Assembly (NCBI GenBank): GCA_964634355.1
Contig: CAZWIF010000004.1
Location: forward strand, 1-37,974
From: an uncultured Clostridium sp.
Lineage (GTDB): Bacteria; Bacillota; Clostridia; TANB77; CAG-508
DNA: 37,974 nt
Direction of reading: 5' to 3'
The position numbers were made by a program, and so were the translations under genes. Positions 7,888 through 26,887 of the stretch are shown in pieces; the stretch's first letter is position 1; each line of letters starts with the position of its first letter. The notes under the pieces are model-generated. The model did no database searches, was not told where the DNA came from, and saw only the letters and a list, made by a program, of their open reading frames with translations.

Positions 7888-7892
7888 TATAT

Positions 7893-7980: not shown

Positions 7981-8010
7981 TTGACTTTTTAATAAGATTA
8001 TATATATAAT
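7981..8010 (+). promoter_or_regulatory. near-consensus sigma-A promoter for the manC-gmd glycan operon
   Basis: TTGACT, 18 nt, TATAAT, placed directly after the 7893-7920 terminator and about 35 nt before the manC SD. Confidence 0.65.
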
Positions 8011-8042
8011 ACAAGAGTATATTACATTTTAAGAAAAGGAGT

Positions 8043-9104: not shown

Positions 9105-10133
<1,029 letters not shown>

Positions 10134-10164
10134 TCACATATAAATAATTTAATATATGGAAAAT

Positions 10165-10196
10165 ATGTAGGGGCACGGTGCACCGTGCCCTTGTAA
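10165..10196. repeat. GC-rich palindromic element, copy 3 (core 10171-10190), between gmd and the rmd-like gene
   Basis: The core and flanks (ATGTAG ... TTGTAA) are identical to copy 1. It sits in the only sizeable gap between manC and the fusion gene. Confidence 0.85.
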
Positions 10197-10241
10197 AAAT
10201 TTTTACAACATATGATAGAACCAGAAAGGAATTGATATAAA

Positions 10242-11159
10242 ATGAAAAAAGTATTAATTACAGGTGCAGGTGGATTTGTAGGAAAATATTTAATAGATAT
10301 ATTCAAAAAGGACAATTATGAGATTTTAGCATGTGATATTAATAAAAAAGAAAATTTTGATTCGGATATAAGATATGAAGATATGGACATATTAAACAAA
10401 AACATGATAAATCCAATATTAAAAGATTTCAAACCAGATTATCTAATTAATCTAGCTGCTATAAGTTCAGTAGGACTATCATGGAAAATACCTAATAAAA
10501 CAGTGGAAGTAAATGTAATAGGAACAATAAACCTATTAGAGGCAGTGCATACATATTGTCCAGATTGTAAAATACTTCTTATTGGTTCAAGTGAAGAGTA
10601 TATGATGAAAGATGTACCACTAAAAGAAACTGATGAAGTAAATGCAAACAATCCATATGGAATATCAAAGATTGCACAAGAAAATTTTGCAAAAATGTAT
10701 AAAGAAAAATATGGAATGAAGATTGTTTGTACTCGTTCATTTAATCATACAGGAGTCGGTCAACTAGATACATTTGCAATCCCAAGTTTCTGTAAACAGG
10801 TAGCTGAAATTGAGAAATCAGGAAAACCAGGTCCAATTGCCGTTGGGAATTTAACCGCATATAGAGATTTTTCAGATGTTAGAGACATTGTGAAGGTATA
10901 TAAGGCTCTATTAGAAAATGATACAGATGAGTTGATATATAATGTCGGTTCAGGGAATGCATATCAAATGCAAGAAATTTTAGAGTATATTGTTTCATTA
11001 TCAACACAAAAAATAGATATAGTTACAGACGTAGATAAAATAAGACCAGTGGATACACCATACATATGCTGTGATAACACGAAAATAAAGAAATATTTTG
11101 ATAACACAGATATCAAAAAAACAATTAAAGAATTATATGAATACTATCTAAAACAGTAA
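10242..11159 (+). CDS. rmd: GDP-4-keto-6-deoxy-D-mannose reductase-like short-chain dehydrogenase/reductase (SDR) (Rmd-like; GDP-D-rhamnose or GDP-6-deoxy-D-talose synthase)
   Basis: 305-aa extended SDR directly after gmd. It has VLITGAGGFVGKYL, GSSEEY and NPYGISK (YxxxK). The N terminus resembles Rmd rather than GDP-fucose synthase. Product stereochemistry cannot be read from the sequence. Confidence 0.65.
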   Translation: MKKVLITGAGGFVGKYLIDIFKKDNYEILACDINKKENFDSDIRYEDMDILNKNMINPILKDFKPDYLINLAAISSVGLSWKIPNKTVEVNVIGTINLLEAVHTYCPDCKILLIGSSEEYMMKDVPLKETDEVNANNPYGISKIAQENFAKMYKEKYGMKIVCTRSFNHTGVGQLDTFAIPSFCKQVAEIEKSGKPGPIAVGNLTAYRDFSDVRDIVKVYKALLENDTDELIYNVGSGNAYQMQEILEYIVSLSTQKIDIVTDVDKIRPVDTPYICCDNTKIKKYFDNTDIKKTIKELYEYYLKQ

Positions 11160-11217
11160 AAACAAAAATTAGAACATATTTGTAACTATAAAAATATTAG
11201 ATTATCAAAATGAAAGG

Positions 11218-12330
11218 ATGACATATATTATGAAAATTGCTATTGTACATGACTGGCTAACTAATATGGGAGGAGCAGAAAATTTAATAATAAACTTTCA
11301 TGAGATGTATCCAGAAGCACCTATATATACAAGCATTTATAACCCAGACAACCTTGATGATAGATTAAAAAACATAGATGTTAGAACTAGTTTCTTACAA
11401 AAGAAGAATAAAAAGATAACAAACCATAAAAAATATTATCCTTTTATGCCAATGGCTTTTGAAAGTATGGATTTAAATGAATATGACATTATTTTGAGTA
11501 GTAGTACATGTTGTGCTAAAGGAATTATACCACGACCTGATGCAATACATATATGCTATTGTAATACTCCAATGAGATATGCATGGGAAAAAAGAGATGA
11601 GTATGTAAAGAATTCAGGAAAGTTCAAGAAAAAACTTATAGGAATATTAACGCATTATATGAGAATTTGGGATGTTACATCAAGTAGTAGAGTAGATTAC
11701 TTTATTGCAAATTCTACTGCGGTTCAAGAAAGAATAAAAAAATATTATAGAAGGGATTCTGTAGTAATAAATCCTGCTGTTAGATGTAATTTATTTGATA
11801 TAAGTGATACAGATGGAGATTATTATTTAATAGTTTCAAGATTAGTTCCTTATAAAAGATTAGATTTAGCTGTACAAGCTTGCAAAGAATTGGGAAGAAA
11901 ACTCATAATTGCAGGGGAAGGAACTGAAAAGGAGAAACTACAAGAGATGGCGAGTGGTTGTAGTAATATTAAATTTCTTGGAAGACTTTCAGATGAAGAA
12001 GTAAAAAAATACATGTCAGAATGTAAAGCACTTCTCTTTCCTGGGGAAGAAGACTTTGGAATTACACCAGTAGAAGCAATGGCATGTGGAAGACCTGTAG
12101 TTGCATATGGTAGAGGAGGAACACTTGATACAGTTATTGATGGAAAAACAGGTGTATTATTTAAAGAACAAACAGTAGAAGATGTAAAAAATGCAATGTT
12201 GAAATTAGAGTGTACGGAGTTTGATAAGCAAACGCTAAGAAAACATGCTTTAAAGTTTGATGAGGCTGAGTTTAAAAGAAAAATTAAGCAATTTATTGAT
12301 GAAAAGGTAAAGGAAAAAAATATGATATGA
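11218..12330 (+). CDS. GT4-family (GT-B, retaining) glycosyltransferase
   Basis: N-terminal KIAIVHDWLTNMGGAENL and the E-x7-E motif in FPGEEDFGITPVEAMACGRPVV. The probable start is ATG 11230. Confidence 0.85.
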   Translation: MTYIMKIAIVHDWLTNMGGAENLIINFHEMYPEAPIYTSIYNPDNLDDRLKNIDVRTSFLQKKNKKITNHKKYYPFMPMAFESMDLNEYDIILSSSTCCAKGIIPRPDAIHICYCNTPMRYAWEKRDEYVKNSGKFKKKLIGILTHYMRIWDVTSSSRVDYFIANSTAVQERIKKYYRRDSVVINPAVRCNLFDISDTDGDYYLIVSRLVPYKRLDLAVQACKELGRKLIIAGEGTEKEKLQEMASGCSNIKFLGRLSDEEVKKYMSECKALLFPGEEDFGITPVEAMACGRPVVAYGRGGTLDTVIDGKTGVLFKEQTVEDVKNAMLKLECTEFDKQTLRKHALKFDEAEFKRKIKQFIDEKVKEKNMI

Positions 12331-12351
12331 TATAGAATAGAGGAGAAAATA

Positions 12352-13401
12352 ATGACAATTTACTTAAATGGTAAGTTTTTAACACAAAAAATAACTGGAG
12401 TTCAACGATATGCTAGAGAAGTAATAAAAACTATAGATAATATGAATTTAAAAGATGAAATAATATTATTAATACCTCAAAATGCAATAAATGATATGGA
12501 GCTAAAAAATATAAAAACTAAAAAAATAGGAAAATTAAGAGGAAGACTATGGGAACAAATTTCATTGCCTATATTTGTAAAAAAACAAAAGTCAAAAACA
12601 CTTTTAAATCTATGTAATATAGCTCCTGTATTACTACCAGGATACATAACATTACATGATATTTCATTTAAAACAAACTCACAACACTTAAACTGGAAAT
12701 TTGTTACATATTATAAAATAATTACTAGACTTAATATAAAGAGATATAAACATATATTTACTGTGAGTGAATTCTCAAAAAGTGAAATAATAAATAATTA
12801 TCATATAGATGAAAATAAGGTTACAGTAGCATACAATTCAGCAGAACACATTAATAGTGTAGTAGCAGATTATGAAATAATAAAAAAATTGGAATTAGAA
12901 AATAAAGAATTCTTATTTTCATTGGGTAGCAAGAGTCCGCATAAAAATTTTAAATTTGTAGAAAAGTGTGCTAAAAATAATCCCGATTTATTATTTGTTG
13001 TATCTGGAGATAATAATAGTAAAATTTTTAATGATGAAGAAGAAAACAATGAAATCAAGAATATAATTTATACGGGGAGATTAGATGATGGAGAGATTAA
13101 AGCTTTATATGCTAGATGTAAAGCTTTTATGTTTCCTTCTAAATACGAAGGATTTGGAATACCACCACTTGAAGCAATAGAATGTGGATGTAGAAATATT
13201 ATAGTTTCAGATATACCTGTATTGCATGAAATATATTCTGAAAATGTAAAATACCTAAATCTAAATGATGAAGAAAATGAAAGTAAAAAAATTAAAGATA
13301 AAATAAATGAGAAAATAATAGTAGATGAAAGCATAATAAAAAAATATACATGGGAAAATACAGCAGAGACAATTATAAATAATGTAGCAGAGGCAAAATA
13401 A
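12352..13401 (+). CDS. GT4-family glycosyltransferase
   Basis: N-terminal ITGVQRYAREV and the E-x7-E motif in PSKYEGFGIPPLEAIECG. GAGGAG SD upstream. Confidence 0.85.
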   Translation: MTIYLNGKFLTQKITGVQRYAREVIKTIDNMNLKDEIILLIPQNAINDMELKNIKTKKIGKLRGRLWEQISLPIFVKKQKSKTLLNLCNIAPVLLPGYITLHDISFKTNSQHLNWKFVTYYKIITRLNIKRYKHIFTVSEFSKSEIINNYHIDENKVTVAYNSAEHINSVVADYEIIKKLELENKEFLFSLGSKSPHKNFKFVEKCAKNNPDLLFVVSGDNNSKIFNDEEENNEIKNIIYTGRLDDGEIKALYARCKAFMFPSKYEGFGIPPLEAIECGCRNIIVSDIPVLHEIYSENVKYLNLNDEENESKKIKDKINEKIIVDESIIKKYTWENTAETIINNVAEAK

Positions 13402-13492
13402 AAATGATAATATCAGAAATTTACTTTTAAAAAAATTTAATAAGGAGAAGGTAAATAACTGGTAAAAAAATATAATAAGAGTTGTTTAGACA

Positions 13493-16093
13493 GTGATTGG
13501 AGGAGAAAAAGATAGAATGTGCATAACAGTTTTAGGAATAATAATAGTTATAGTATCAGTATTAGCCTTTTTTAGGAATGAAAAGTTTTTATTAAAAATG
13601 ACCATTTTTTTATCAGTATTTACAGCAGGTTCAATATTAAATACAGATATAACAAATGTTGCAATACAAATGTATAGAATACCAATGTTTTTATGGTGCT
13701 TAAAACAAGTAATAAATTTTATAAAATCAAAGCCAAAAATTAATTTACAAATTATTAAAGATATATTAAAGAATAATAAGATTTTTACCGCTTTATTAAT
13801 TTTTTCATGTACAATTATATTGAGTGGTGTTTGGTTATTTGTTTCAAAATCAAACTATACATATGAATTGTATTCAGAAGAATATGTTATAACTTTTAAT
13901 ATATCTATTTTTAAACAAATAATTGGAATATTAAAATATTTTGCATTTTGTATGATTTTATCTTTAACAATAAAAGATAAAAAAGAAATAAAAGAATTAT
14001 TAAAAACATTTGTAGCAGGATCAGTATTTGCTGTTATATGGGGATTCATACAATATATATTATATTATTTAGGAGTGGAATACCCTGCTTTTATATTTAA
14101 TAACAATAATTTATTCGATCAATGGTATACTCAAATCATGCATGGTGTAAAAAGAATATGTTCTATTGCGACAGAACCTTCAGTATTTTCATTAAACTTA
14201 TTAGGATTTTTACCAATTATATTGATTCCATGGTTGCTTAGAAAAGAGGATTATCTAAAAAAAGAATATAAATTATTAACTGTATTAGTTATAGCAACAA
14301 TAGTTTGTACTATTTTAACGACATCATCAACAGCCATTGTTGGATTAACTGTATTGATGGGTGTACTAATCATATACTTATTAATAAGCGGAATTAGAAA
14401 TAAAGAATTAGAAGAAAACAAAAAAATAATTACAAATATAGTATTGATTAGTATAGTTTCAATAATTATTGCACTTATATTAGCATATTGTGGAATGAAA
14501 ATTTATAATGTTAAATTAGTTCAAGTTGATGATTTATATAATGAGGAGAGATTATCAGATACATTAAAAGAAATGACAGTAGATAAACTATCAAGTGATT
14601 CAGGAATGGAAAGAACTAATAGGGAAATAGTAGGAATGAAAATATACATTCAATCACCAATATTTGGAGTTGGATTTGTTTCATACAGAACATATACCTT
14701 ATATACAAATATATTGGTAAATACAGGAATACTAGGATTTTTTGCATTAATATATCTATTATTTGTTGTTATTAAAAAATTAATAATAAATATGAAAAAA
14801 GACAAATGTATGGCTTTAATATTTTTATTAAGTATTTTGGGAATGAGTATAGTGTTTTTAATTAGTGTGCCTGATTTAATATATGTTTATTTTTGGGCTA
14901 TATTAGTATTAGCATACAAATATTTTGATGTAGCAGAAGATAATATAAATACGACTAAAAAAGAAAATTTAATTATAGGAATTGATGCAAGAGGATTAGA
15001 TAGGAATAAAGCAGGAATAGCAACATATATAGAACAAATTATAAAAAAAATAAACCAAGATGAAAAACAAAACAATACATACATTTTATATTCGAATAGA
15101 GAAATAAATATTGATGTAAATTTAAAGAAAAATATTATAACAAAAAATTATAAAAAACCTATTGGAACCTTATGGTTATATTTTATGCTACCAAGAATAT
15201 TAAAAAAAGATAAAGTGGATATATTTTGGGGGACTCAACATGTGCTTCCTGAAAGAAATAATTATACTGAAAATATAAAATATGTTCTAACAGTGCATGA
15301 TTTATCAAATCATAAGCTAAAAAACATAGGAGAATGGAAAAATGCAATAATTCAAAAGTCCTTCTTAAAAACAAGTTGTAAACATGCAGATACCATAATT
15401 GCAGTTTCGAAATCAACAAAACAGGATATTGTAGAATTATTTAACATACCAGAAGAAAAAATTAGAGTAGTGTATGAAGGTACGAATTTTGAAAAAAAGT
15501 GTAATTTAGAAGAAGAAAAAAATATATTAAAAAAATTTGATGTAGAAGATAGGAATTATTTATTATTTGTTAGTACTATAGAGCCAAGAAAAAATATTAT
15601 TACATTAATTAAAGCTTTTGAGTATCTAAAAGATAATGGACAAAGTAAATTAAAACTTATATTGGCTGGAGGTTTAGGCTGGAAGTATGAACCTATACTT
15701 GAAGCAATAAATACTTCAAAATACAAAAATGATATAAACCAAGCGGGATATATATCAAAAGAAGAAAAAGAATGTTTATTACACAATGCAAAAGCCTTTG
15801 TATATCCATCACTTTATGAAGGATTTGGACTGCCTATATTGGAAGCAATGGCAAATGAAGCAATAGTAGTAACAAGTAATATTTCATCTATTCCAGAAGT
15901 AGGAGGAGATGCTGCTCTATATTATAACAATGTAATGGATTATAAAGAATTAGCTACTGTAATTGAGAAAACGTTGAAAATGTCTGACAAAGAAAAAAAA
16001 GATAAAATAAAACTTGGACAAGAGCAAATAAAAAAATTCACTTGGGATAAATGTTCTAAAGAAACTTTAAAAACAATACTGGAAGATTGTTAA
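13493..16093 (+). CDS. fusion protein: N-terminal Wzy/O-antigen-ligase-like polytopic membrane domain plus C-terminal GT4 glycosyltransferase
   Basis: A single uninterrupted 866-aa frame. Residues 1 to about 485 form at least 10 hydrophobic helices and carry the Wzy_C-like block RTNREIVGMKIYIQSPIFGVGF. From about residue 494 (nt about 14970) runs a complete GT4 domain (IGIDARG ... VLTVHDL ... PSLYEGFGLPILEAM). The likely start is ATG 13517 after GGAGGAG. Confidence 0.8.
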   Translation: MIGGEKDRMCITVLGIIIVIVSVLAFFRNEKFLLKMTIFLSVFTAGSILNTDITNVAIQMYRIPMFLWCLKQVINFIKSKPKINLQIIKDILKNNKIFTALLIFSCTIILSGVWLFVSKSNYTYELYSEEYVITFNISIFKQIIGILKYFAFCMILSLTIKDKKEIKELLKTFVAGSVFAVIWGFIQYILYYLGVEYPAFIFNNNNLFDQWYTQIMHGVKRICSIATEPSVFSLNLLGFLPIILIPWLLRKEDYLKKEYKLLTVLVIATIVCTILTTSSTAIVGLTVLMGVLIIYLLISGIRNKELEENKKIITNIVLISIVSIIIALILAYCGMKIYNVKLVQVDDLYNEERLSDTLKEMTVDKLSSDSGMERTNREIVGMKIYIQSPIFGVGFVSYRTYTLYTNILVNTGILGFFALIYLLFVVIKKLIINMKKDKCMALIFLLSILGMSIVFLISVPDLIYVYFWAILVLAYKYFDVAEDNINTTKKENLIIGIDARGLDRNKAGIATYIEQIIKKINQDEKQNNTYILYSNREINIDVNLKKNIITKNYKKPIGTLWLYFMLPRILKKDKVDIFWGTQHVLPERNNYTENIKYVLTVHDLSNHKLKNIGEWKNAIIQKSFLKTSCKHADTIIAVSKSTKQDIVELFNIPEEKIRVVYEGTNFEKKCNLEEEKNILKKFDVEDRNYLLFVSTIEPRKNIITLIKAFEYLKDNGQSKLKLILAGGLGWKYEPILEAINTSKYKNDINQAGYISKEEKECLLHNAKAFVYPSLYEGFGLPILEAMANEAIVVTSNISSIPEVGGDAALYYNNVMDYKELATVIEKTLKMSDKEKKDKIKLGQEQIKKFTWDKCSKETLKTILEDC
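15566..15988 (+). repeat. 423-bp tract 100 percent identical to 16714-17136 (copy A, inside the fusion-gene GT domain)
   Basis: Base-by-base comparison at a constant offset of 1148 nt. The flanks on both sides are homologous but clearly diverged. Confidence 0.9.
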
Positions 16094-17244
16094 ATATTGG
16101 AGGAAATTTAATGAGAATAGGGATAGATGCTAGAAATATGTACAAAAATAAGGCTGGAATAGAAACATATATAGAACAAAATATAAGAATAATTAACGAA
16201 ATGGAAAAGGATACAAATGAATATATATTATATTCAAATATGCCAGTTAACTTAAACATAGATTTGAAAGAAAAAATAAAAATAAAAAACTATAATTGTA
16301 AATTAGGCTCTTTCTGGATGTATTTTAAAATTCCTAAGATATTAAAAGAGGATAATATTGATGTTTTTTGGGGACCGAGGCATTTATTACCAAGAAGAAA
16401 TAAATATTCAAAAAACATAAGATATGTTTTGACGGTACATGATTTAGCTATTCATAAATTAAATACAGTAGGTCAACTAAAAAACACAATAGTACAAAGA
16501 TTGTTCTTGAAAACAAGTTGCAAACATGCTGATGTAATAATGGCAGATTCGAAATCAACAAAACAAGACATTGTAGAATTATTTAACATACCTGAAGAAA
16601 AAATTGAGGTAGTTTATTTAGGAGCTAATTTTGCAAATGGATATAGTATAGAAAAAGAAGAAGAAGAAACAATATTAAGAAAGTTCAATGTAGAAGATAA
16701 GAATTACCTATTCTTTGTTAGTACTATAGAGCCAAGAAAAAATATTATTACATTAATTAAAGCTTTTGAGTATCTAAAAGATAATGGACAAAGTAAATTA
16801 AAACTTATATTGGCTGGAGGTTTAGGCTGGAAGTATGAACCTATACTTGAAGCAATAAATACTTCAAAATACAAAAATGATATAAACCAAGCGGGATATA
16901 TATCAAAAGAAGAAAAAGAATGTTTATTACACAATGCAAAAGCCTTTGTATATCCATCACTTTATGAAGGATTTGGACTGCCTATATTGGAAGCAATGGC
17001 AAATGAAGCAATAGTAGTAACAAGTAATATTTCATCTATTCCAGAAGTAGGAGGAGATGCTGCTCTATATTATAACAATGTAATGGATTATAAAGAATTA
17101 GCTACTGTAATTGAGAAAACGTTGAAAATGTCTGACGAAGAAAAAAAGGATAAAATAAAATTAGGACTAGAACAAACAAAAAAATTTACTTGGGAAAAAT
17201 GTGCAAAAGAGACATTACAAATTATAACTGAAAAAGTAGAGTAA
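16087..17244 (+). CDS. GT4-family glycosyltransferase, tandem paralog of the GT domain of the preceding fusion
   Basis: The likely start is ATG 16111, 7 nt after GGAGG (MRIGIDARNMYKNKAGIETY). E-x7-E motif. The C-terminal domain is identical to the upstream paralog over about 140 aa. Confidence 0.85.
   Translation: MLNIGGNLMRIGIDARNMYKNKAGIETYIEQNIRIINEMEKDTNEYILYSNMPVNLNIDLKEKIKIKNYNCKLGSFWMYFKIPKILKEDNIDVFWGPRHLLPRRNKYSKNIRYVLTVHDLAIHKLNTVGQLKNTIVQRLFLKTSCKHADVIMADSKSTKQDIVELFNIPEEKIEVVYLGANFANGYSIEKEEEETILRKFNVEDKNYLFFVSTIEPRKNIITLIKAFEYLKDNGQSKLKLILAGGLGWKYEPILEAINTSKYKNDINQAGYISKEEKECLLHNAKAFVYPSLYEGFGLPILEAMANEAIVVTSNISSIPEVGGDAALYYNNVMDYKELATVIEKTLKMSDEEKKDKIKLGLEQTKKFTWEKCAKETLQIITEKVE
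16714..17136 (+). repeat. 423-bp tract 100 percent identical to 15566-15988 (copy B, inside the stand-alone GT4 paralog)
   Basis: Same comparison as copy A. It encodes the donor-binding C-terminal Rossmann domain (FVSTIEPRKN ... KTLKMSD). Confidence 0.9.
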
Positions 17245-17272
17245 AAATTAAGTTGAAAGGAATAGAAATAAG

Positions 17273-18454
17273 ATGAAAAAAATTGGAATTGATTTTACAT
17301 ATATTAAAGATAATTCTGTAACAGGTGTAAGGAAACATGGGGAGGAAATTTTAAACGGTCTTATAAAGGCAAATGCAGATTATGAGATAGTCCTATTTGT
17401 GGAGGAAAGTTTAAAAGAGTCATTTGAAAGTAAATACCCAAATTATAAAATTGTTCCAATGAAATATTGGTTTAAAAACATAAAATATGTAAGAAGAATA
17501 AATATGACGAAAATAGGAACAGAAATAAAAGCAAAGAAGATGGAAAGAGAAAATTGTGACATCTTAATATATCCTTATACTTATAAATTAACTCCATTGA
17601 TAAAGAAACAAGAAAAAATAATTTCAATACTTGATTTAATACCATTAGATGAAATAAAAGACAAAGAATCTAGGATATATAATAAAATAAAAAAACAAAA
17701 TATAAAAATAATGAACCAATCTAAATATATAGTAACTATTTCAGAATATTCCAAGAAAAGATTGCAGGAGATAAATCCTGATTATAAAGGAGAAATATTT
17801 GTAATACCAAGTCCTGTTGAAAAACCTAAAAAAACTAATAAAAAAGTTTCAGATATAATAAATAAAGATATACCATATATATTTTCTATAAATTCATTTT
17901 TCAAGAATAAGAATCAAATAACATTAGTCAAGGCCTTTAATAGAATAAAAGATGAAATATCACATAGTTTAATTTTGGTAGGAAGACCGGAATTGGAGTC
18001 AGGGAAAAGTGGCTATAATGAAATTATAGATTATATAGAAAAAAATAATTTACAAGAAAGAGTACTTGTATTATCGCATATATCTGATGAAGATAGAAAT
18101 ACTTTGTTTTATAATACAGATTTATTTGTAACAACATCTTTAATGGAAGGATTTGGAAGGACACCAGTTGAAGCTGCATTATGTACAGTTCCTGTAATAT
18201 CAACAAAGACGACGTCACTACCTGAAGCGACAATGAATGAAGTATTTTATTATGAAAATGCAATTGATGATGAAGAACTAGCAAGGAAAATGCTAGAAGT
18301 ATTAAATAATAAACCATCAAAGGAAAGGCTAGACGAAATATCAAGAAAATTAGAAAAAGAATATAGTGAACAAAGAATAACAGGGATGTATATTAAATTG
18401 ATTAACCATATTTTGAAAGGAGAAGAAAATGCAAAGGACAAAACAATCAATTAA
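17273..18454 (+). CDS. GT4-family glycosyltransferase
   Basis: 393 aa with MKKIGIDFTY at the N terminus and E-x7-E in TSLMEGFGRTPVEAALC. Confidence 0.8.
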   Translation: MKKIGIDFTYIKDNSVTGVRKHGEEILNGLIKANADYEIVLFVEESLKESFESKYPNYKIVPMKYWFKNIKYVRRINMTKIGTEIKAKKMERENCDILIYPYTYKLTPLIKKQEKIISILDLIPLDEIKDKESRIYNKIKKQNIKIMNQSKYIVTISEYSKKRLQEINPDYKGEIFVIPSPVEKPKKTNKKVSDIINKDIPYIFSINSFFKNKNQITLVKAFNRIKDEISHSLILVGRPELESGKSGYNEIIDYIEKNNLQERVLVLSHISDEDRNTLFYNTDLFVTTSLMEGFGRTPVEAALCTVPVISTKTTSLPEATMNEVFYYENAIDDEELARKMLEVLNNKPSKERLDEISRKLEKEYSEQRITGMYIKLINHILKGEENAKDKTIN

Positions 18455-20003
18455 AAATGCAGGATTTTCACTCATTTGTCAAGTGGTACAATTATTAATA
18501 CAGATGGCAACAAGAATTGCTTTTATAAAAATAATAGGGCAAGAATATTTAGGATTAAATAGCTTATTTACAGATTTATTAGTAGCATTGCAATTAGTTG
18601 AATTAGGGATTGGTCCAGCTATTGCATATAGTTTATACAAACCATTAGCAGATAAAAACAAAGAAAAAATAAAATCATTAATGAATTTATTTAAAAAGGC
18701 ATATATAGCGATAGGAATACTTATATTAATTTTAGGTATTTGTTTTACACCTTTTTATAGATTCTTTATAAATGAAGTCCCTGATATATCAAATTTGGAT
18801 TTAATATATTTATTATTTGTATTTAATACAGCAATATCATATTTTTATTCATATTATAGAACATTAGTAATTAGTGATCAAAAAAAATATTTGGATATAT
18901 TAATACAAACTGGAATAACTTCAATGGTCTCTTTAGTTCAAATAGGAATTTTATTTATAACACATAATTACATATTATATATTATTGTACAAATAGTTGG
19001 AACATTTTTGATAAACTTTATTGCATCAAGGATAGCTTTAAAACAATATCCTTTCTTGAAAGAGAAGAAAGTTGAAAAACTTGACAAAGAGTCATATGGG
19101 GAAATTAAGAAAAATATTTTTGCAATGATTTTTCACAAGGTTGGAGGAATAATTCGAGATGCTACAGATAATATACTTATTTCAAAATATATTGGACTTG
19201 CTATTACTGGAGTATATTCTAATTATTCTATGATAACTAAAAATTTAAGTACTATAATTACTCAAATATTTGCTGCTGTTTTATCTAGCGTTGGAAATTT
19301 ACATGCTACTGCTGATAAAAAGTCACAAATGGAGGTCTTTGAGAAAATTAATTTTATGAATTTTTGGATTGCTTCTTTTTGTGCTTGTTGTTTTGGAGCA
19401 CTAATAAATTCTTTTATTCTAGTAATAGCTGATGAATCATATTTATTAGAATTTTATATAACAATATTAATAACAATAAAATTTTATTTAGAAATTATGA
19501 GAAAAACCCCTTGGATGTTTTGTGAAGCTGCAGGAATATATTGGGAAGGCAAGACAAAACCAATATGGGAAGTTATAGTTAATTTGGTATTATCAATAAT
19601 CCTAGTTAAAATAATAGGAATAGCAGGTATATTTTTAGGCACCATTATAACTATTTTATTGATAGATTTAACATTTGAACCATATCTTGCATTTAAATAT
19701 GTCTTAAAAGAAAAATTAAGCAAATATTATATTAAATATATAATATATTTAGGAGTAACGACACTTATGTTTATTGTCACTTGTTGGACATGTTCATTAG
19801 TGCCAGGAGTAGGAATTATATCATTTATAGCAAAAGGAATTGTTGCAGTAATTATAACAAATTTAGTTGTAATGGTAACAATGTTTAGAACAGAGGAATT
19901 CAAATATACAATTGAATTAGCCAAAAGATATATAGAACCATTTATTGCTAAAATAAAATACAGTGTTAAGAGTGGATTTAATAATGGAAAAGGAACAGCT
20001 TAA
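18429..20003 (+). CDS. wzx: Wzx-type oligosaccharide flippase (MOP superfamily polysaccharide biosynthesis protein)
   Basis: 524 aa with about 12-14 predicted TM helices and a typical N terminus (KNAGFSLICQVVQLLIQMATRIAFIKIIG). It overlaps the upstream GT by 26 nt and is followed by an intrinsic terminator. Confidence 0.8.
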   Translation: MQRTKQSIKNAGFSLICQVVQLLIQMATRIAFIKIIGQEYLGLNSLFTDLLVALQLVELGIGPAIAYSLYKPLADKNKEKIKSLMNLFKKAYIAIGILILILGICFTPFYRFFINEVPDISNLDLIYLLFVFNTAISYFYSYYRTLVISDQKKYLDILIQTGITSMVSLVQIGILFITHNYILYIIVQIVGTFLINFIASRIALKQYPFLKEKKVEKLDKESYGEIKKNIFAMIFHKVGGIIRDATDNILISKYIGLAITGVYSNYSMITKNLSTIITQIFAAVLSSVGNLHATADKKSQMEVFEKINFMNFWIASFCACCFGALINSFILVIADESYLLEFYITILITIKFYLEIMRKTPWMFCEAAGIYWEGKTKPIWEVIVNLVLSIILVKIIGIAGIFLGTIITILLIDLTFEPYLAFKYVLKEKLSKYYIKYIIYLGVTTLMFIVTCWTCSLVPGVGIISFIAKGIVAVIITNLVVMVTMFRTEEFKYTIELAKRYIEPFIAKIKYSVKSGFNNGKGTA

Positions 20004-20095: not shown

Positions 20096-21526
20096 CTAAA
20101 ATCTAAAATATATGAAAGGACTATATGATGAGCCTGTCATATATAGAATTGCCAATAAAAATATTATTATTAATATAATAAATTCTATAATTTCTAATAT
20201 CCAAATATTATTGTCTTTTACTTTTTCACATATTTTATTTTTTATGAAGGATATAATAGGAGTTGAGAATATTATAGCAGCAATACAAAATGTTATATTC
20301 TCAACATTTAATATAGAATATATTGCTTCTAATCCATTAATATTAAATACAAACATACATTTTATATAATCAATAGCTATTGTTAAATTATCTGCTCTAA
20401 AGAATACCCAACCGATTAATATAATTACTAGTGTATATACTCTTTTTATTATGGTTGGCATTTTCTCAAGTATTTCTCCAAATTTTCCTCTCTCTAATAT
20501 TAGAAATATTCCATACCATAGTCCCCAAACTATAAAGTTCCAACTTGCTCCATGCCAAATTCCCGTTATTATAAATACTATTAATAAATTTCTATATGTT
20601 TTCCATTTTCCCTCTCTACTACCTCCTAGAGGTATATATATGTAATCCTTAAACCATGTTGATAATGATATGTGCCATCTTCTCCAGAATTCTTTAATTG
20701 ATTTTGATATATATGGATAATTAAAATTTTCAAGAAAATCAAAGCCAAACATTTTTCCAAGTCCTATTGCCATATCTGAATAGCCAGAAAAATCATGATA
20801 TATCTGTAATGCATATAATATTATTCCAACCCAAGCTATAATACTATTATTATAATATTCACTATTTTCAAATATAGTATCTGCAATATATCCTGCTGAA
20901 TTTGAAAGTAAAATCTTCTTAGAAAAACCTATTATAAATCTTTTTATTCCTGCATAAAATTTCTCAATAGTAACACTTCTATTATTTATTTGTTCATTTA
21001 TATCTGTATATCTTACTATTGGACCTGCTATCATTTGTGGAAATAGCATTATATATAAGGCTAAATCAATGATATTTTTTTGTGCTTCAACTTTATTTTT
21101 ATATACATCTATAACGTATGACAATATTTGAAATGTAAAAAATGATATTCCTATTGGTAATGTTATTGCTCTTACTTGAATATTTATATTAAAATTTAAG
21201 AAACCTAATAAGTTTAATAAATTTTCTAATATAAAGTTAAAATATTTATAATATACTAATACTCCTATATCTATTAAAAGTACTAATATGAATATTAATT
21301 TTTTACTTTTTTTATTATTTTCATATTTTGCTAATGCCAAACCTGCTACGTAATTTATAAATATTAACATAGCAAGTAACAATACATATGAGCCTCCACC
21401 CCAGGAATAACAAATAATAGAGGCAATTAATAGTAGTGCATTCTGATATTTTCTTTTTGCTAAGAAATATAGGCATAATGTTAGTGGTAAAAATATGAAC
21501 AAAAATACCGGTGTAGTAAATACCAT
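20096..21526 (-). CDS. MBOAT-family membrane O-acyltransferase (AlgI/DltB/PatA-like)
   Basis: 476-aa polytopic protein with FWRRWHISLSTWFKDYIYIPLGGS and the invariant-His block GIWHGASWNFIVWG. A strong SD (AGGAAGGAGA) lies upstream, 2 nt after the upstream stop. Confidence 0.9.
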   Translation of the reverse strand: MVFTTPVFLFIFLPLTLCLYFLAKRKYQNALLLIASIICYSWGGGSYVLLLAMLIFINYVAGLALAKYENNKKSKKLIFILVLLIDIGVLVYYKYFNFILENLLNLLGFLNFNINIQVRAITLPIGISFFTFQILSYVIDVYKNKVEAQKNIIDLALYIMLFPQMIAGPIVRYTDINEQINNRSVTIEKFYAGIKRFIIGFSKKILLSNSAGYIADTIFENSEYYNNSIIAWVGIILYALQIYHDFSGYSDMAIGLGKMFGFDFLENFNYPYISKSIKEFWRRWHISLSTWFKDYIYIPLGGSREGKWKTYRNLLIVFIITGIWHGASWNFIVWGLWYGIFLILERGKFGEILEKMPTIIKRVYTLVIILIGWVFFRADNLTIAIDYIKCMFVFNINGLEAIYSILNVENITFCIAAIIFSTPIISFIKNKICEKVKDNNIWILEIIEFIILIIIFLLAILYMTGSSYSPFIYFRF

Positions 21527-21528
21527 GC

Positions 21529-22758
21529 TTATTCTCCTTCCTTTGCTATTTCTGGAAAACCATATTCTTCTAAGTATTGTCTTAATATTTTAGGAAAACC
21601 TGCTCCCATATCATCTAGATATTCTTGATTTACTTCTAATATAATAATGTCTTTATCTCGTAAATATTCATCTAATATTTCTTTAGTTACATTATTATCG
21701 TCCATTTCTTCTTGTACAGTATTTCCATTTTTATCATAATGCCTTATAAATTGTCTGTAAAACATAAAGTCTATTTCTGAAAATATATTTTTGGTCATAG
21801 TCTCAGTTAAATGCCAACTAAAACTGCCTCCCTGCATAAATAATTTTTTATTTGGTATATTTCCATTTTCAAAATTTAATATTGTTTTATAATATATTTC
21901 TTCCTTATCTTTATTAAATATATTTAATAAAGAAAATAAATCCGAATCAGTCGATTGATCTTCAAATATATCATTAGAGGTTTGTATATCTACTATTTCA
22001 AAATTTCTTAAGTTTAGTGTAGAAGTATTATCTATATAATTAATAAATTCTCTTAATACGTATGAAGAAGCCGCATAACTCCAATGAATTCCCGTTTTAT
22101 AATACAAAGGTACCTTAATATTTTCTTCATTTTCTCTAAAAAATTTAGGAGAATCATAATACTTTATCCCTTCAGATTGTAATAATGGTACAAAGATATC
22201 ATAATTTCTTGTATATTCTGACACATTTTTAGCCATTTCATAGTATTTATCTGGTATATACTCTGAGCAAAATTCTGCTTTGCTTGGAGTTATTATTACA
22301 TAAAATTCTTTTCCATTATTATTGCAAATATCCTGTATAGCTTTAATATCTTTTACTAAATCATTTAAGTATTCCTCTGATACCACAGTATTAATTCCTA
22401 GATATTCATTTACATACAATTCTTCAAATAGATAATTTTCTTTTCCAATTATCGCATAACCTTGCTTAAAAATATCATATCTTAATTGATTATAGCATTT
22501 TATAAATATATTTCTATAAGGAAAATTTTCTGCATAGTATGTATCAAAATCTTTTTGATATTCCCCGTTTAAATAAGATTTAATTGAATAAATTGGCTCT
22601 GAAATTTCATCTGTTATTCCATAAAGTTGCTCATCTTTTACTACATGTAATAGTGAATTTAGATATGGAAAAGTAATTATAATCATAAAAATAATTATAA
22701 AAACAATTTTATATTTTTTACTATTTTTCATTTTTACTTTATTTCTCCTAATTATCAA
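21529..22758 (-). CDS. AlgX/AlgJ/PatB-like (DHHW-family) extracytoplasmic acyltransferase partner of the MBOAT
   Basis: N-terminal signal anchor (KYKIVFIIIFMIIITFPYL), an HW block (YYKTGIHWSYAAS) and a Ser block (MQGGSFSW). It sits immediately upstream of, and is coupled to, the MBOAT gene. The ORF-track start is TTG; ATG 22731 is an alternative. Confidence 0.65.
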   Translation of the reverse strand: MIIRRNKVKMKNSKKYKIVFIIIFMIIITFPYLNSLLHVVKDEQLYGITDEISEPIYSIKSYLNGEYQKDFDTYYAENFPYRNIFIKCYNQLRYDIFKQGYAIIGKENYLFEELYVNEYLGINTVVSEEYLNDLVKDIKAIQDICNNNGKEFYVIITPSKAEFCSEYIPDKYYEMAKNVSEYTRNYDIFVPLLQSEGIKYYDSPKFFRENEENIKVPLYYKTGIHWSYAASSYVLREFINYIDNTSTLNLRNFEIVDIQTSNDIFEDQSTDSDLFSLLNIFNKDKEEIYYKTILNFENGNIPNKKLFMQGGSFSWHLTETMTKNIFSEIDFMFYRQFIRHYDKNGNTVQEEMDDNNVTKEILDEYLRDKDIIILEVNQEYLDDMGAGFPKILRQYLEEYGFPEIAKEGE

Positions 22759-23133
22759 TATATATTATTATTTCGTCATTACCTTTATTATCTTTTAATA
22801 TAAAAAACTCTACTGCATTAATTCTCAAAAAGAAAAATCCTTGTAGTATTTATATTTCAGCTCTTAAATATAGTTAAATCAACGATTTTCAGAATTGCAA
22901 CTACAAACTTGTCATTTTTAATCATTCATATATTAGCATAACACGACAAAAAATGCAAGAGCATTTTTTACAGAGGCATTTCATCACATTTGTTACAAAA
23001 TTGTAGGCTTAATTTTTTGAAATTGTAAAATCAGAAAAAGAATCTATTGCTTTTTTGAAAATGATATGTTATATTGTCTAATATAATGAAATCAAAATAA
23101 TAAAAATATATATTTAGACAATAGGGAGGATTT

Positions 23134-24630
23134 ATGAAATATATTATAAATAAAAAGGTATTATTGCTTTTTATTGCTGTAATATTGTTTTTTATAGTTC
23201 TATTCATAGATTTTAATTATTACAAAAATTTATATATCTCTAGCAATTATATAGATATTAGTGAAGTTGAGAAAATTACTGAAGGTAGAGAAGAGTATGG
23301 AGACATTATAAATCTATATTATAAAGATAATGTAATACCTTATAACATAGATGAAAATTATTATTTGTTTCATGTAGCAAACAGTGAAGAATATAAAAAA
23401 ATATATTCTGATAATACTTTTAGTGCTAATATTATAAATCAAGAGGATGATAATACAATACATTTAATTATATATAATGATAATTATTATAAAATTACTA
23501 AAATTAAGCTTACAAATATTCCAGTTATATCAATCAATACAAATGAAACCATAGAAGAAAAAATGTATGGAGACATATACTTATATAGCTCAAATGAAAC
23601 ACTGAATACAACTAATATAATAAATTATAATTGTGAATTTCATATAAGAGGAGTATCAAGCCAAGGGGCACAAAAAAAATCTTATAAAATAAATCTGTTA
23701 ACGAGTAAAGGAAAGAAGCTTGAAATATCTATGCTAGGAATGGACAGTGATGATGATTGGATTTTAAATCCACTTTTTTCAGATGAATCTTACATAAGAG
23801 AAAAAATAGGATATGATATTTGGAATTCATTGAGTGATGAATTTAATCATACTCTAGAATATGTTGAATTAATAATAGATAATTCATATCAAGGAATATA
23901 TTGTTTACAAGAAGCAGTTGATTTAGATATTTTAGCAGCAGATAAGAATAACGATTTTTTTATATCTATAAAAAAATATCCTGACAATATAGAAAACAGT
24001 GTATTATTTGACGATTCGTATACTGAAGAATCAGAAATAATAGATGAATTTGAAATGGAAGAGGGACTTGAGAATAATTATAGCCTGAGAAGAAACCTAT
24101 TACGAGCATTTATGAATAAGAAAAACGGTATAGCGGAAAATAGTATAGAGTATGATTTGAAAAACAATGCAAATTACACTGTATTTATAAATTTGATATT
24201 AGCACCAGATAATATTTTTATAAACCAAAAAATATTATTTAGGAATATGGAAAATTATTATTTAATTCAAAAAACACCATGGGATTTAGATTTTTCAATG
24301 TTAAATAAGATTATGGCACAATCGGTGAAATATATATGGGACATTAATGTGATTTTGTGCGATGTAACATTATCAACTGAATATACTGAAAGCTATGAAT
24401 TTATGCAATATCAAAAAGAACAATATTTTAAAATCAGGGAGACAATATATAATGAGGAAACTTTAAATAATATGATAGATTCATATTGTAATTATTTAAA
24501 ACAAAGTGGGGCAGTTGAAAGAAACTGTGCAAAATGGGGTAATAATAACTTTGAAGAAGAATGTCAAGTGCTAAAAAATTTTTTCAAGGAGAGAATTGCT
24601 GTTTTAGATGACTACTATGGAGGTTTATAA
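23134..24630 (+). CDS. CotH-family atypical protein kinase with N-terminal signal anchor
   Basis: 498 aa. The N terminus (KYIINKK followed by VLLLFIAVILFFIVLFI) predicts an N-in/C-out anchor. CotH-like blocks are KKSYKINL, DDDWILNPLFSDESYIREKIGYDIW and KTPWDLDFS. GGGAGG SD upstream. Confidence 0.8.
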   Translation: MKYIINKKVLLLFIAVILFFIVLFIDFNYYKNLYISSNYIDISEVEKITEGREEYGDIINLYYKDNVIPYNIDENYYLFHVANSEEYKKIYSDNTFSANIINQEDDNTIHLIIYNDNYYKITKIKLTNIPVISINTNETIEEKMYGDIYLYSSNETLNTTNIINYNCEFHIRGVSSQGAQKKSYKINLLTSKGKKLEISMLGMDSDDDWILNPLFSDESYIREKIGYDIWNSLSDEFNHTLEYVELIIDNSYQGIYCLQEAVDLDILAADKNNDFFISIKKYPDNIENSVLFDDSYTEESEIIDEFEMEEGLENNYSLRRNLLRAFMNKKNGIAENSIEYDLKNNANYTVFINLILAPDNIFINQKILFRNMENYYLIQKTPWDLDFSMLNKIMAQSVKYIWDINVILCDVTLSTEYTESYEFMQYQKEQYFKIRETIYNEETLNNMIDSYCNYLKQSGAVERNCAKWGNNNFEEECQVLKNFFKERIAVLDDYYGGL

Positions 24631-25325
24631 TGGAGTATAGAAGAGAACTAAAATATATTGTGAAAAGTAGTGATTTAGCAATATTAGAACAACGAATGAA
24701 TACCGTAATGAAGTTGGACAAGAATGTATTTGATGGTAATGCTTATAATATTAGAAGCATTTACTTTGATAATTATTATAATGAATATTTTTATGATAAT
24801 GAGGATGGAGTTAATGAAAGATTAAAAATTAGAATGAGAATATATAATAGGTCGGATTCCATAATAAAATTAGAAATAAAATACAAGAATAATGGGGTAA
24901 CTAAAAAAGAAGCTTGTTGTATTAGTAGAGCTGTATGCGATAAATTAATTCGTGGTGAAAAATTAAACATAACTGATTGCAAAAACAACAAGGTGTTAAA
25001 TAAAATTTATATAGAAGAACACACGAAATTATTAAAGCCTAAGGTTATAGTAGAATACGAAAGAAGAGCATATGTTGATTATATTGGAAATGTTAGAATT
25101 ACATTCGATACCAATATTAGAGCATCCAAATACATAGATAGATTTTTTGAAGAGGATATTTATGCAGCACCAATATTAGAAACAGGTGCACATGTTCTCG
25201 AAGTAAAATATGATGAATTATTACCAGATTATATATCTGGCAGTATAGAATTAAATACTCTTGAACAAACAGCATTTTCAAAATATTATTTATCAAGATT
25301 GAGATTTGAGGAGGAGATAATATGA
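24630..25325 (+). CDS. VTC-domain protein (Vtc4-like polyphosphate polymerase / triphosphate-tunnel fold)
   Basis: 231 aa and soluble. YRRELKYIV, IRSIYFDNYY, RLKIRMRIY, LEIKYK and HVLEVKY resemble the basic tunnel strands of the VTC catalytic domain. Its start overlaps the CotH stop (TAATG). Confidence 0.75.
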   Translation: MEYRRELKYIVKSSDLAILEQRMNTVMKLDKNVFDGNAYNIRSIYFDNYYNEYFYDNEDGVNERLKIRMRIYNRSDSIIKLEIKYKNNGVTKKEACCISRAVCDKLIRGEKLNITDCKNNKVLNKIYIEEHTKLLKPKVIVEYERRAYVDYIGNVRITFDTNIRASKYIDRFFEEDIYAAPILETGAHVLEVKYDELLPDYISGSIELNTLEQTAFSKYYLSRLRFEEEII

Positions 25326-25993
25326 GTTTTAAAGATGTTATAAAAAGTTCAGTTTTAGAAGGTTTTTCTTCTGACATCACAACAACAAAAATTGTTATTA
25401 CATTAGTTTTTTCAGCGATAATAGGAATATTAATATATTTTGTTTATAAATACAAAACAAAATCAAGTTTTTATTCCAAGGATTTTAATATTGTTTTAGT
25501 TGGATTACCTGTTATAACAGCAGCAATAGTACTCGCAATGCAATCAAACATTGTCATTTCATTAGGTATGGTTGGTGCTCTATCAATAGTACGTTTTAGA
25601 AATGCAGTTAAAAGTTCAATGGATTTGTTATTCTTATTTTGGTCTATAAGTATTGGTATTATATGTGGTGCTGGAATTTATGAATTGGCTTTAATATTAT
25701 CATTTGTAATTGCAATATTATTAATTTTAAGTGACTATGTTCCATTGAAGAAACAATCATTATTACTAATTATTAATGGAAGCGATATCAATATTGAAGA
25801 AAATTTAATACCAAAATTAGAAAAATTAACTTCTTTTTATAAAATAAAATCAAGGAGTATACATAACAATCATGTTGATATGATAATTGAGATAAAGAGT
25901 AAAAAGGACTTTAAAATTGTTAAAGAATGTTCTGAAATTGAAAATGTTGAAAATGTAAGTCTATTATCTCATGATGGAGAAGAAAGATTATAA
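25322..25993 (+). CDS. DUF4956-family membrane protein
   Basis: 223 aa with about 4 TM helices and the family-typical block GMVGALSIVRFRNAVKSSMDLLFLFWSISIGIICGAG, then an about 80-aa soluble C-terminal domain. ATGA overlap with the VTC gene. Confidence 0.75.
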   Translation: MSFKDVIKSSVLEGFSSDITTTKIVITLVFSAIIGILIYFVYKYKTKSSFYSKDFNIVLVGLPVITAAIVLAMQSNIVISLGMVGALSIVRFRNAVKSSMDLLFLFWSISIGIICGAGIYELALILSFVIAILLILSDYVPLKKQSLLLIINGSDINIEENLIPKLEKLTSFYKIKSRSIHNNHVDMIIEIKSKKDFKIVKECSEIENVENVSLLSHDGEERL

Positions 25994-26041
25994 AAAAGTA
26001 TATTAATATCAAATAAGGTTACAATAAAAAAAGAGGTAAGT

Positions 26042-26887
26042 ATGAATTTGATATTAAAATTAATTGAATTTATAGTATATTCAATTTTAATAGTTTTAGT
26101 AACTAAATATTTTCTAATAAAAGCACTTAGAAAATTAGCAAGTGCGTTAGATTTAGATTCAAAAATAGTAGGAGACATTGCAGGTATTGCAACTTCTATG
26201 CCTGAACTTATAAGCGTCTTTTTTACATCTTTGCAAGGAATGTTTGTTACAGGAATATTTAATATTTTGAGTTCAAACATCATTAATGTTCTTCAATATA
26301 CTTTTTCAATATTGCTGAATAAAAACCAAAGAATGTTGAAAAATGAAGCATTGAAGGTAGATGTTTTAATGGTAATAATGACAATATTGTTACCATTATC
26401 TGTAGTCATTTTTAATATTGAACTTAACATTGGATTTATTCCTATATTTATTATGCTGTTTATTTTGTTTTATATAATTAATAGAAATGGTCATAAGATG
26501 TATTTATCAAATATAAAAACAGAGGAAACAATGGAAATAGAAGAAGAGAAAAGATGGAATAAAGGGAAGAAAAAGGTTGTAATAAAAAATGCAATTTATA
26601 TTGTTTTAATTGGTATAATACTCTTTATAATTGGAGAATTGTTAGGAAGAGTAGTGAGAGATTTAAGTTCAGTATTTAATATATCTGAGCTAATTATAGG
26701 AATTGCACTAGGATTTATAACAAGTTTACCTGAATTAATTACTTTCTTTGAATCACAAAAACATTCAAAGAAAGAGGAGAACGAAATGGCAGGAGTAGTT
26801 GAGGCTACTAATAATTTATTAACCTCAAATGTAATTAATTTATTTGTTGTTTTAACGATTGGAATACTTATAACAGCAATGATATAG
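26042..26887 (+). CDS. CaCA-superfamily cation/Ca2+ exchanger-like membrane protein (YrbG/NCX_Mj-like)
   Basis: 281 aa. Two alpha-repeat signatures are present: IVGDIAGIATSMPELISVF ... LSSNIINV and IGIALGFITSLPELITFF ... LTSNVINL. Confidence 0.7.
   Translation: MNLILKLIEFIVYSILIVLVTKYFLIKALRKLASALDLDSKIVGDIAGIATSMPELISVFFTSLQGMFVTGIFNILSSNIINVLQYTFSILLNKNQRMLKNEALKVDVLMVIMTILLPLSVVIFNIELNIGFIPIFIMLFILFYIINRNGHKMYLSNIKTEETMEIEEEKRWNKGKKKVVIKNAIYIVLIGIILFIIGELLGRVVRDLSSVFNISELIIGIALGFITSLPELITFFESQKHSKKEENEMAGVVEATNNLLTSNVINLFVVLTIGILITAMI

Follow-up and report, generated by a model that had tools for sequence, protein, structure and literature searches.

Genes for a CotH-family kinase-like protein, a VTC-domain protein and a DUF4956 membrane protein lie together in several described bacterial loci, and the present analysis concerns a further copy of this triad (cotH-VTC-DUF4956), found in an uncultured Clostridium sp. 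on a stretch of 37,974 nucleotides (assembly GCA_964634355.1, contig CAZWIF010000004.1, positions 1 to 37,974), hereafter called the window. First, Lepp et al. (2010) reported from the NELoc-2 locus of Clostridium perfringens VTC-domain genes, each followed by a gene for a membrane protein of ~225 aa (annotated as 'tubulin/FtsZ'), together with genes for a 497-aa CotH and a glycosyltransferase (PMC2879425). This set probably represents the same module within a pathogenicity locus of a clostridium; judging by size and position, its membrane protein would belong to DUF4956. Second, in pel loci of streptococci, clostridia and bifidobacteria, Whitfield et al. (2020) recognised an accessory gene group made up of cotH and the genes for a poly-phosphate polymerase, DUF4956 and DUF4832, and proposed regulation of Pel via CotH phosphorylation (PMC7112168). 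Third, in a 2025 study of Streptococcus intermedius, SIR_1594 was described as a secreted CotH, SIR_1593 as a polyphosphate polymerase domain protein and SIR_1592 as an MgtC transmembrane (TM) domain plus ACT; deletion of SIR_1592 led to more Pel and deletion of SIR_1594 to less, and in artificial sputum medium aggregation fell by more than 50% in each of these two mutants (PMC12345266). Its authors suggest that the genes act in 'phosphate metabolism' and say that they did not find the synteny beyond pel loci (PMC12345266).

The three genes of the window are as follows.

23134..24630, plus strand: cotH, CotH-family kinase-like protein of 498 aa (Pfam CotH 1.2e-27, 97.7 bits against a cut-off of 23.8)
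24630..25325, plus strand: VTC, stand-alone VTC-domain triphosphate-tunnel enzyme of 231 aa (Pfam VTC 1.4e-38, 133.2 bits against a cut-off of 23)
25322..25993, plus strand: DUF4956 membrane protein of 223 aa (Pfam DUF4956 2.5e-15, 57.0 bits against a cut-off of 30.6)

They represent a further copy of a known and widespread gene set in a new, non-pel context of the Wzx/Wzy type, and are not categorically new. The first-pass annotation of this DNA, made from the letters and an open reading frame (ORF) list, had named no earlier description of the triad, but it appears in publications of 2010, 2020 and 2025 (PMC2879425, PMC7112168, PMC12345266); no publication was found that defines its biochemistry, and no explicit proposal of polyphosphate synthesis and export for CotH was found in the literature. 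The 2025 statement on synteny is contradicted by the window itself and by the relatives surveyed below. We read cotH-VTC-DUF4956 as a module for tailoring or regulating the cell envelope, in which polyphosphate made by VTC would be relayed outward via DUF4956 and used by CotH, and we consider this reading possible rather than probable.

The raw sequence bears out translational coupling of the triad: the cotH stop and the VTC start overlap in TAATG (24628-24632), and the VTC stop and the DUF4956 start overlap in ATGA (25322-25325). A fourth gene, for a CaCA-superfamily cation exchanger, follows after 48 bp, with a Shine-Dalgarno-like AAAGAGG ahead of it. The four ORFs, both overlaps and the gap had all been given correctly in the first-pass annotation, and the motifs quoted there (DDDWILNP, PWDLDFS, ELKY, YFDN, RLKIRMRIY, LEIKYK, LEVKY and two G-x-TS-x-PEL repeats) were all found; the four families named there (CotH, VTC, DUF4956 and Na_Ca_ex) all clear the Pfam cut-offs.

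By its sequence and predicted fold, the VTC protein is a bona fide Vtc4-type triphosphate-tunnel enzyme. The Pfam VTC (PF09359) match spans residues 4-221 on profile positions 2-229 of 235, with no second Pfam domain, and a hydropathy scan revealed no hydrophobic segment, as expected of a soluble protein. Profiles were needed for comparison with the Protein Data Bank (PDB), because single-sequence searches against its sequences gave no match for either VTC or CotH; the VTC profile, built from 23 homologs, matched the catalytic domain of yeast Vtc4 (PDB 3g3q) with E = 1.2e-5. Nine Vtc4 residues that hold the Mn-triphosphate are needed for polyphosphate synthesis, and of the nine K458 alone differs in the inactive paralogs Vtc2 and Vtc3, which carry I or L at this position (bioRxiv 10.1101/2023.01.27.525886). 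All nine are identical in the VTC protein, namely K8 (K200 of Vtc4), R68 (R264), R70 (R266), K84 (K281), Y143 (Y359), R145 (R361), E191 (E426), S217 (S457) and K218 (K458), and they are kept in 81 of 81 homologs from 80 species. The reference for this mapping was Vtc4 196-467, identical to 3g3q_A residues 11-282. Up to residue 163, i.e. over the N-terminal two-thirds, the mapping is independently backed by HMMER and hhalign; for the C-terminal part it relies on a global pairwise alignment to 3g3q anchored on LEVK and FSK, since the C-terminal sub-profile was too short to match Vtc4 and hhalign ended at residue 163.

The AlphaFold (AF2) model of the VTC protein (predicted local distance difference test, pLDDT, 91.5; predicted TM-score, pTM, 0.88) agrees with this assignment. 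Ranks 1-13 of its Foldseek search are Vtc4, Vtc3 and Vtc2 structures, Vtc4 first (E 6.7e-14 to 1.2e-10, TMq 0.63-0.76), and other triphosphate tunnel metalloenzymes (TTM), namely ygiF, archaeal TTM, CYTH cyclases and thiamine triphosphatase, score lower (TMq 0.43-0.58). The soluble protein with a Vtc4-like tunnel that had been claimed from strand motifs is thus upheld by a Pfam match of 133.2 bits and by retention of the complete residue set. The family comprises 11,040 representatives at 50% identity (E <= 0.001), and the best 150 of them are 173-301 aa long, i.e. stand-alone domains. In TTM enzymes the canonical motif of the first strand is E-x-E-x-K. In the VTC protein, beta-strand 1 (residues 4-8; 24630-24656) reads R-x-E-x-K, kept in 81 of 81 homologs, and in Vtc4 it reads R-x-T-x-K; the bacterial form is thus intermediate between the TTM and Vtc4 forms, with the first-position Arg as in Vtc4. 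The 'VTC domain' of PMC6514570 is an unrelated Vms1 domain and was set aside.

In the hydropathy scan the CotH protein (PF08757) shows a K-rich tail, then one N-terminal hydrophobic segment (residues 9-27) and a strongly acidic remainder. It is therefore predicted to be held in the membrane by a single anchor with its catalytic domain outside the cytoplasm, in line with the orientation first proposed for it, and an N-terminal hydrophobic segment is likewise present in 68 of 71 VTC-linked CotH homologs. In Bacteroidota, CotH relatives carry as export tag a C-terminal sorting domain of the type IX secretion system (T9SS). A profile of 27 CotH homologs matched the B. cereus CotH kinase structure 5jd9 with E 3.3e-15: D359-x4-N364 of the window aligns with D-G-F-V-H-N of the B. 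cereus protein and W383-D384-x-D386 with W-D-Y-D, and the nucleotide-binding KKSY lysines are conserved in the CotH homologs. The B. subtilis mutants D228Q and D251A are inactive (PMC7821199); D359 and D384 would be the equivalents of D228 and D251, allowing for the offset (+4) between B. subtilis and B. cereus numbering. Of the 71 VTC-linked CotH proteins, 68 retain D359 and 69 retain D384. An exported, catalytically competent CotH kinase domain is thus well supported by the predicted anchor and the aligned residues.

The DUF4956 protein (PF16316) shows four to five hydrophobic segments in the hydropathy scan, the TM count (4 or 5) and the topology being uncertain. Its AlphaFold model, of moderate confidence (pLDDT 70.7), contains five helices (21-139) followed by a C-terminal beta-alpha-beta-beta-alpha-beta (ACT-like) domain. 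Foldseek gave nothing significant for this model: all 50 matches listed had E > 0.001, with no VTC chain among them, and the C-terminal ~80 residues weakly resemble ACT/NikR-type domains. The DUF4956 profile had no match among PDB sequences. The family is well conserved (mean column identity 70%), with an invariant stretch SLGMVGALSIVRFRNAVK...DLLFLFWSISIGIICGAG, also given as SLGMVGALSIVRFRNAVK...DLLFLFWS, that holds an R-F-R-x3-K motif; R91 and R93 occur in 78 of 78 homologs, K97 and D101 in 77 of 78. The window protein scores 19.6 bits against Pfam MgtC (PF02308), below the cut-off of 31.4, and 18.4 against NCBIfam PRK09977 (cut-off 214), a faint MgtC/SapB match; 17 of 21 DUF4956 relatives match Pfam MgtC weakly (best E 1.8e-5). 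Judging by these scores, DUF4956 is a distant relative of MgtC and not a member of that family; the homologue SIR_1592 was likewise described with an MgtC part (PMC12345266). No Vtc1-type profile matched, Pfam giving DUF4956 and weak MgtC alone. The first-pass annotation had suggested that VTC and DUF4956 could together make polyphosphate and thread it across the membrane, as an analogue of yeast VTC. DUF4956 is the obligate neighbour of VTC, but it is MgtC-like and unrelated to the Vtc1-type channel. The one pointer to a polyphosphate channel is the association with VTC.

The MgtC likeness bears on a regulatory explanation, which we regard as possible if rather doubtful. Here DUF4956 and VTC, the latter acting as a nucleoside triphosphate/triphosphate hydrolase or sensor, would tune the cytoplasmic phosphate/ATP status or how active the glycan synthesis machinery is, and exported CotH would phosphorylate extracellular parts of this machinery or matrix proteins, with no polymer exported. 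The weak but consistent MgtC matches and the ACT-like domain, of a ligand-binding type, are in keeping with such a role, as is the statement, in work cited in PMC12345266, that MgtC regulates ATP synthase and PhoR. The opposite Pel shifts in S. intermedius and the lack of a reported aggregation defect for its VTC deletion also look regulatory (PMC12345266), and regulation of Pel is what Whitfield et al. had proposed (PMC7112168). However, the VTC protein keeps the polymerase-specific residue set, including the equivalent of the K458 lost in non-catalytic Vtc2/3, and in Foldseek is closer to Vtc4 than to any hydrolase TTM; moreover, the exported kinase would be left without a phosphodonor.

Conservation of the gene set was surveyed with one genome per species among at least 573 VTC relatives. 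The best 80 loci were annotated with our own profiles; they belong mostly to Lachnospiraceae and Oscillospiraceae, plus one Bacteroidales metagenome-assembled genome (MAG), and 46 of them have full flanks. DUF4956 adjoins VTC in 45 of these 46 loci, and CotH, divergent Pfam-confirmed forms included, lies no more than three genes from VTC in 36 (78%). Among 49 VTC-DUF4956 junctions, 19 overlap and a further 17 are separated by 0-30 nt. The linkage is far beyond chance; its invariant core is the VTC-DUF4956 pair, with CotH as a frequent third member. No VTC-DUF4956 or CotH-VTC fusions were found among the best 120 matches per family or the best 150 VTC representatives. Of five closer relatives (L081-L090; VTC identity 59-69%), the four with enough flank likewise keep the gene order cotH-VTC-DUF4956, and the fifth (L086) lies on a 4.6-kb contig. 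Several loci are expanded: a Christensenellaceae chromosome (OY762278.1, L036) carries two complete CotH-VTC-DUF4956 triads in opposite orientation within ~9 kb (8311-17654), and two or three tandem CotH genes occur in L034, L019, L029, L040 and L055. All three genes occur together in the Bacteroidales MAG (L025), in contrast to two other Bacteroidota loci (L091 and L092).

The invariance of the pair would suit secretion of polyphosphate as an end in itself. On this account VTC and DUF4956 would make polyphosphate and deposit it on the wall or beyond it, where, like teichoic acids, it would form an anionic matrix or bind cations, and CotH would anchor or cap the polymer or act independently with another donor. 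The pair is present in 45 of 46 loci and CotH is missing near 10 of 46 pairs; teichoic-acid-type neighbours (LtaS-like, GDPD, LCP) are frequent; and extracellular polyphosphate resistant to exopolyphosphatase (PPX) is reported from the B. cereus group, though its authors state that B. cereus has no VTC4 homolog (PMC13484657). Against these points, a transport role of DUF4956 is likewise without a PDB sequence match or a significant Foldseek relative, the linkage of CotH holds in 78% of loci and extends to translational coupling in the window, and the VTC deletion of S. intermedius came with no report of an aggregation defect (PMC12345266). We consider this explanation unlikely.

The reading of the triad as an envelope-tailoring or envelope-regulating module draws further on the genes around it. 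The glycan-related features on the 5' side are as follows.

6026..20003, plus strand: Wzx/Wzy-type surface-glycan locus (Pfam)
20096..22758, minus strand: MBOAT O-acyltransferase and AlgX/DHHW-like protein (Pfam MBOAT 1.4e-33, ALGX 1.2e-6, DHHW 3e-6)
22759..23133, no strand: divergent intergenic region of 375 bp between the AlgX-like gene (minus strand) and cotH (gene layout)

The locus 6026-20003 encodes LCP, an initiating Bac_transf, GDP-mannose pyrophosphorylase, GDP-mannose dehydratase, an epimerase, five GT4 and a Wzx flippase. One of the five GT4 (13493-16093) is part of an 866-aa protein in which a Wzy_C membrane domain (O-antigen polymerase/ligase-like) is fused to the glycosyltransferase. 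The MBOAT and AlgX/DHHW-like (SGNH) pair, situated between the glycan locus and the triad, is by its Pfam matches an extracytoplasmic glycan O-acylation pair. No pel-type or DUF4832 family was matched by Pfam among all large ORFs of the window.

The position beside a surface-glycan locus, pointed out from the start, is recurrent. In the closer relatives with enough flank the triad lies within surface-glycan loci or closes them on the 3' side, these loci carrying GT4, GT2, Wzy/O-antigen ligase, Wzx, Epimerase_2, MBOAT, Acyl_transf_3, Caps_synth and Stealth genes. In Lachnospiraceae the triad recurs within a gene set of a teichoic-acid-like or wall-polysaccharide type, the operon EamA-EamA-GtrB-LtaS-like-GDPD-GtrA-CotH(-CotH)-VTC-DUF4956-GT2-GT2-Bac_transf-LCP-GT2 (L005, L019, L021, L023, L029, L040, L049, L055 and others); none of the papers found describes such a layout. 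Among 129 nearest neighbours scanned with Pfam, GT2 (17), GtrA (8), GDPD (4), dTDP-sugar epimerase (3) and GT4 (3) were the commonest. In the closer relatives MBOAT (L081) or Acyl_transf_3 (L087/L088, L089/L090) genes lie near or beside the triad, and in this small sample two post-export tailoring modules may travel together. One glycan locus with the triad (L089, 9661-10468) contains a gene of the Stealth family (sugar-1-phosphate transferase), which fits a phosphate-containing surface polymer.

The proposed mechanism would consist of three steps. First, soluble VTC, working at the membrane's inner face, would build a phosphoanhydride chain (poly- or oligophosphate) from a nucleoside triphosphate. 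Second, DUF4956 would hold VTC at the membrane and pass the product or phosphoryl groups outward. Third, outward-facing CotH would use this donor to phosphorylate the surface glycopolymer or a surface protein of the neighbouring locus. We infer each chemical step, the first from the fully conserved active site and the second from obligate adjacency and translational coupling only. In D-alanylation, O-acetylation and Gtr glycosylation, polymers outside the cytoplasm are modified by an enzyme in the cytoplasm, a relay in the membrane and a transferase on the outer side, and by analogy the triad would follow the same relay logic. The mechanism is further backed by the PPK-independent (i.e. polyphosphate kinase-independent), PPX-resistant and possibly end-modified extracellular polyphosphate described in a 2026 preprint from the B. 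cereus group, which shows that such polymer exists in Gram-positives, the same authors noting that B. cereus lacks a VTC4 homolog (PMC13484657), and by the change in Pel level and halved aggregation upon CotH or DUF4956 deletion in S. intermedius (PMC12345266). That the triad constitutes a second, non-PPK bacterial route to polyphosphate, with VTC docked on DUF4956, the chain threaded to the surface and CotH using the chain instead of ATP to phosphorylate surface glycans or proteins, as a phosphorylation relay of three parts outside the cytoplasm, seems to us quite unlikely.

Several points weigh against the relay from VTC through DUF4956 to CotH. First, the tunnel residues are common to TTM enzymes of other chemistry (triphosphatases and cyclases), so that their conservation alone is no proof of polymerase activity. 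Second, the deletion of SIR_1593, the VTC gene of S. intermedius, has no reported aggregation defect, unlike the other two deletions, and a simple linear pathway therefore fits poorly; moreover, DUF4956 and CotH deletions shift Pel levels in opposite directions (PMC12345266). Third, DUF4956 has neither similarity to the Vtc1-type channel nor a significant structural relative, and MgtC, the family nearest to it, is known as a regulator, not a transporter. Fourth, 10 of the 46 VTC-DUF4956 pairs have no CotH nearby, and two T9SS-tagged Bacteroidota CotH genes (L091 7001-8713; L092 263-1969) have no VTC or DUF4956 within 7 kb; the three proteins are therefore not strictly interdependent. Fifth, in only about one third of the distant loci do genes recognisable as glycan genes directly adjoin the module. 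Finally, no activity measurement for bacterial VTC, DUF4956 or exported CotH was found in the literature.

If the relay is true, the VTC protein would be the first bacterial VTC-type polyphosphate synthase, in a family of ~11,000 representatives at 50% identity concentrated in gut Clostridia. PPK-independent extracellular polyphosphate of Gram-positives has just been reported with no assigned enzyme (PMC13484657). The relay would also explain the function of an exported kinase where ATP is absent, and define a new type of surface-glycan tailoring tied to aggregation and virulence loci (S. intermedius pel and C. perfringens NELoc-2). Even without this model, the survey corrects the published view of the triad as confined to pel and removes the CaCA exchanger from the system; the triad is a good experimental target.

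The exchanger is encoded by the gene directly downstream of the triad.

26042..26887, plus strand: CaCA-superfamily cation exchanger of 281 aa with two alpha-repeats (Pfam Na_Ca_ex 7.7e-16, 58.8 bits against a cut-off of 24.9)

Na_Ca_ex matches it in two stretches, with the motifs GIATSMPEL and GFITSLPEL, which places it in the CaCA superfamily; against the YrbG-type calcium/sodium antiporter model TIGR00367 it scores 78.4, below the cut-off of 179.65. The first-pass annotation had included it as a fourth component supplying or removing the divalent counter-ion of exported polyphosphate. In favour of such a four-gene system, the gene lies 48 bp downstream on the same strand with no predicted terminator in between, and the same arrangement is found on a second contig with an identical VTC protein, the only place where it recurs. 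However, no CaCA homolog was found within 10 kb of VTC in any of the 80 loci, each from its own species, even at E <= 10, nor beside the triad in any of the five closer relatives (L081-L090), and Na_Ca_ex is not among the 25 commonest neighbour families listed. As the exchanger never recurs in the neighbourhood survey, it is not part of the module; it is a local neighbour that may be co-transcribed here. The four-gene system is contradicted by the survey and is, in our opinion, highly improbable.

The absence of a terminator ahead of the exchanger gene, cited at first as a sign of coupling, holds as an observation: a promoter/terminator scan predicted no terminator-like sites in 22700-27100, the upstream side of priA included. 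It is weak evidence for coupling, because there is none between the CaCA gene and priA either, so that the argument would equally recruit priA, and because promoter-like sites in the same region are at chance level (45 found against 41 +/- 7.6 expected). Since these matches do not exceed chance, we infer from the gene layout that 22759..23133 is presumably the triad's own divergent promoter region. No Rfam elements or riboswitches were found in the window, this intergenic region included, and no PADLOC defence model matched in the window, whose G+C content is ~27%.

On the 3' side the CaCA gene is followed by priA, def and further housekeeping genes. The usual gene after priA and def is fmt. 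In the window, a gene for a 278-aa protein of the amino-acid-kinase family (Pfam AA_kinase 1.8e-50) follows them at 29765-30601. At 30892-33358 a gene for an ArsR-family regulator overlaps the start of a gene for a heavy-metal P-type ATPase with an HMA domain; after it come lexA, dxs and a metallo-beta-lactamase-fold gene, an ordinary set of housekeeping and metal resistance functions.

Among the known systems, the pel accessory set (SIR_1594-1592) shares with the window triad three contiguous families in the same order cotH-VTC-DUF4956, a CotH predicted to be exported and an exopolysaccharide locus nearby. The window triad differs in that the window lacks pelDEADAFG and the DUF4832 glycoside hydrolase, the adjacent locus being of the Wzx/Wzy type with GDP-mannose-derived sugars, and in that the triad has its own (presumed) divergent promoter region. 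In NELoc-2 of C. perfringens two copies of the VTC pair flank a resolvase, and the order is VTC-membrane-CotH, unlike in the window.

The individual proteins likewise resemble known ones in part. With MgtC/SapB/YhiD, DUF4956 shares a multi-helix membrane domain and a small cytoplasmic ACT-like domain; its own invariant motif, obligate VTC partner and sub-cut-off MgtC scores set it apart. Bacillus CotH acts in the mother-cell cytoplasm, where ATP is available. The window CotH shares with the Bacillus spore-coat protein (5jd9/5jda; B. subtilis) the Pfam family, the equivalents of D228 and D251 and the KKSY lysines, but is predicted to face outside and has an N-terminal anchor and an extra N-terminal region of ~140 residues; the spore-coat protein has no export signal, acts on CotB and CotG in the mother cell and is linked to cotG/cotB, whereas the window CotH has VTC/DUF4956 and glycan genes, and no coat genes, as its neighbours. 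Finally, the yeast VTC complex (Vtc4/Vtc3 or Vtc2/Vtc1; 3g3q, 7ytj, 8i6v), in which a polyphosphate polymerase is coupled to a membrane channel, has a homologous catalytic tunnel domain, and in bacteria the tunnel enzyme, though soluble, likewise has a membrane protein as its obligate partner. However, yeast Vtc4 carries an SPX domain and Vtc1-type TM helices and assembles with Vtc1/2/3, whereas the window VTC protein is a stand-alone domain of 231 aa with neither SPX nor a fused TM part; the yeast channel is Vtc1-type (DUF202), to which the DUF4956 partner is unrelated; and the yeast product goes into the vacuole, whereas any product of the window VTC would leave the cell.

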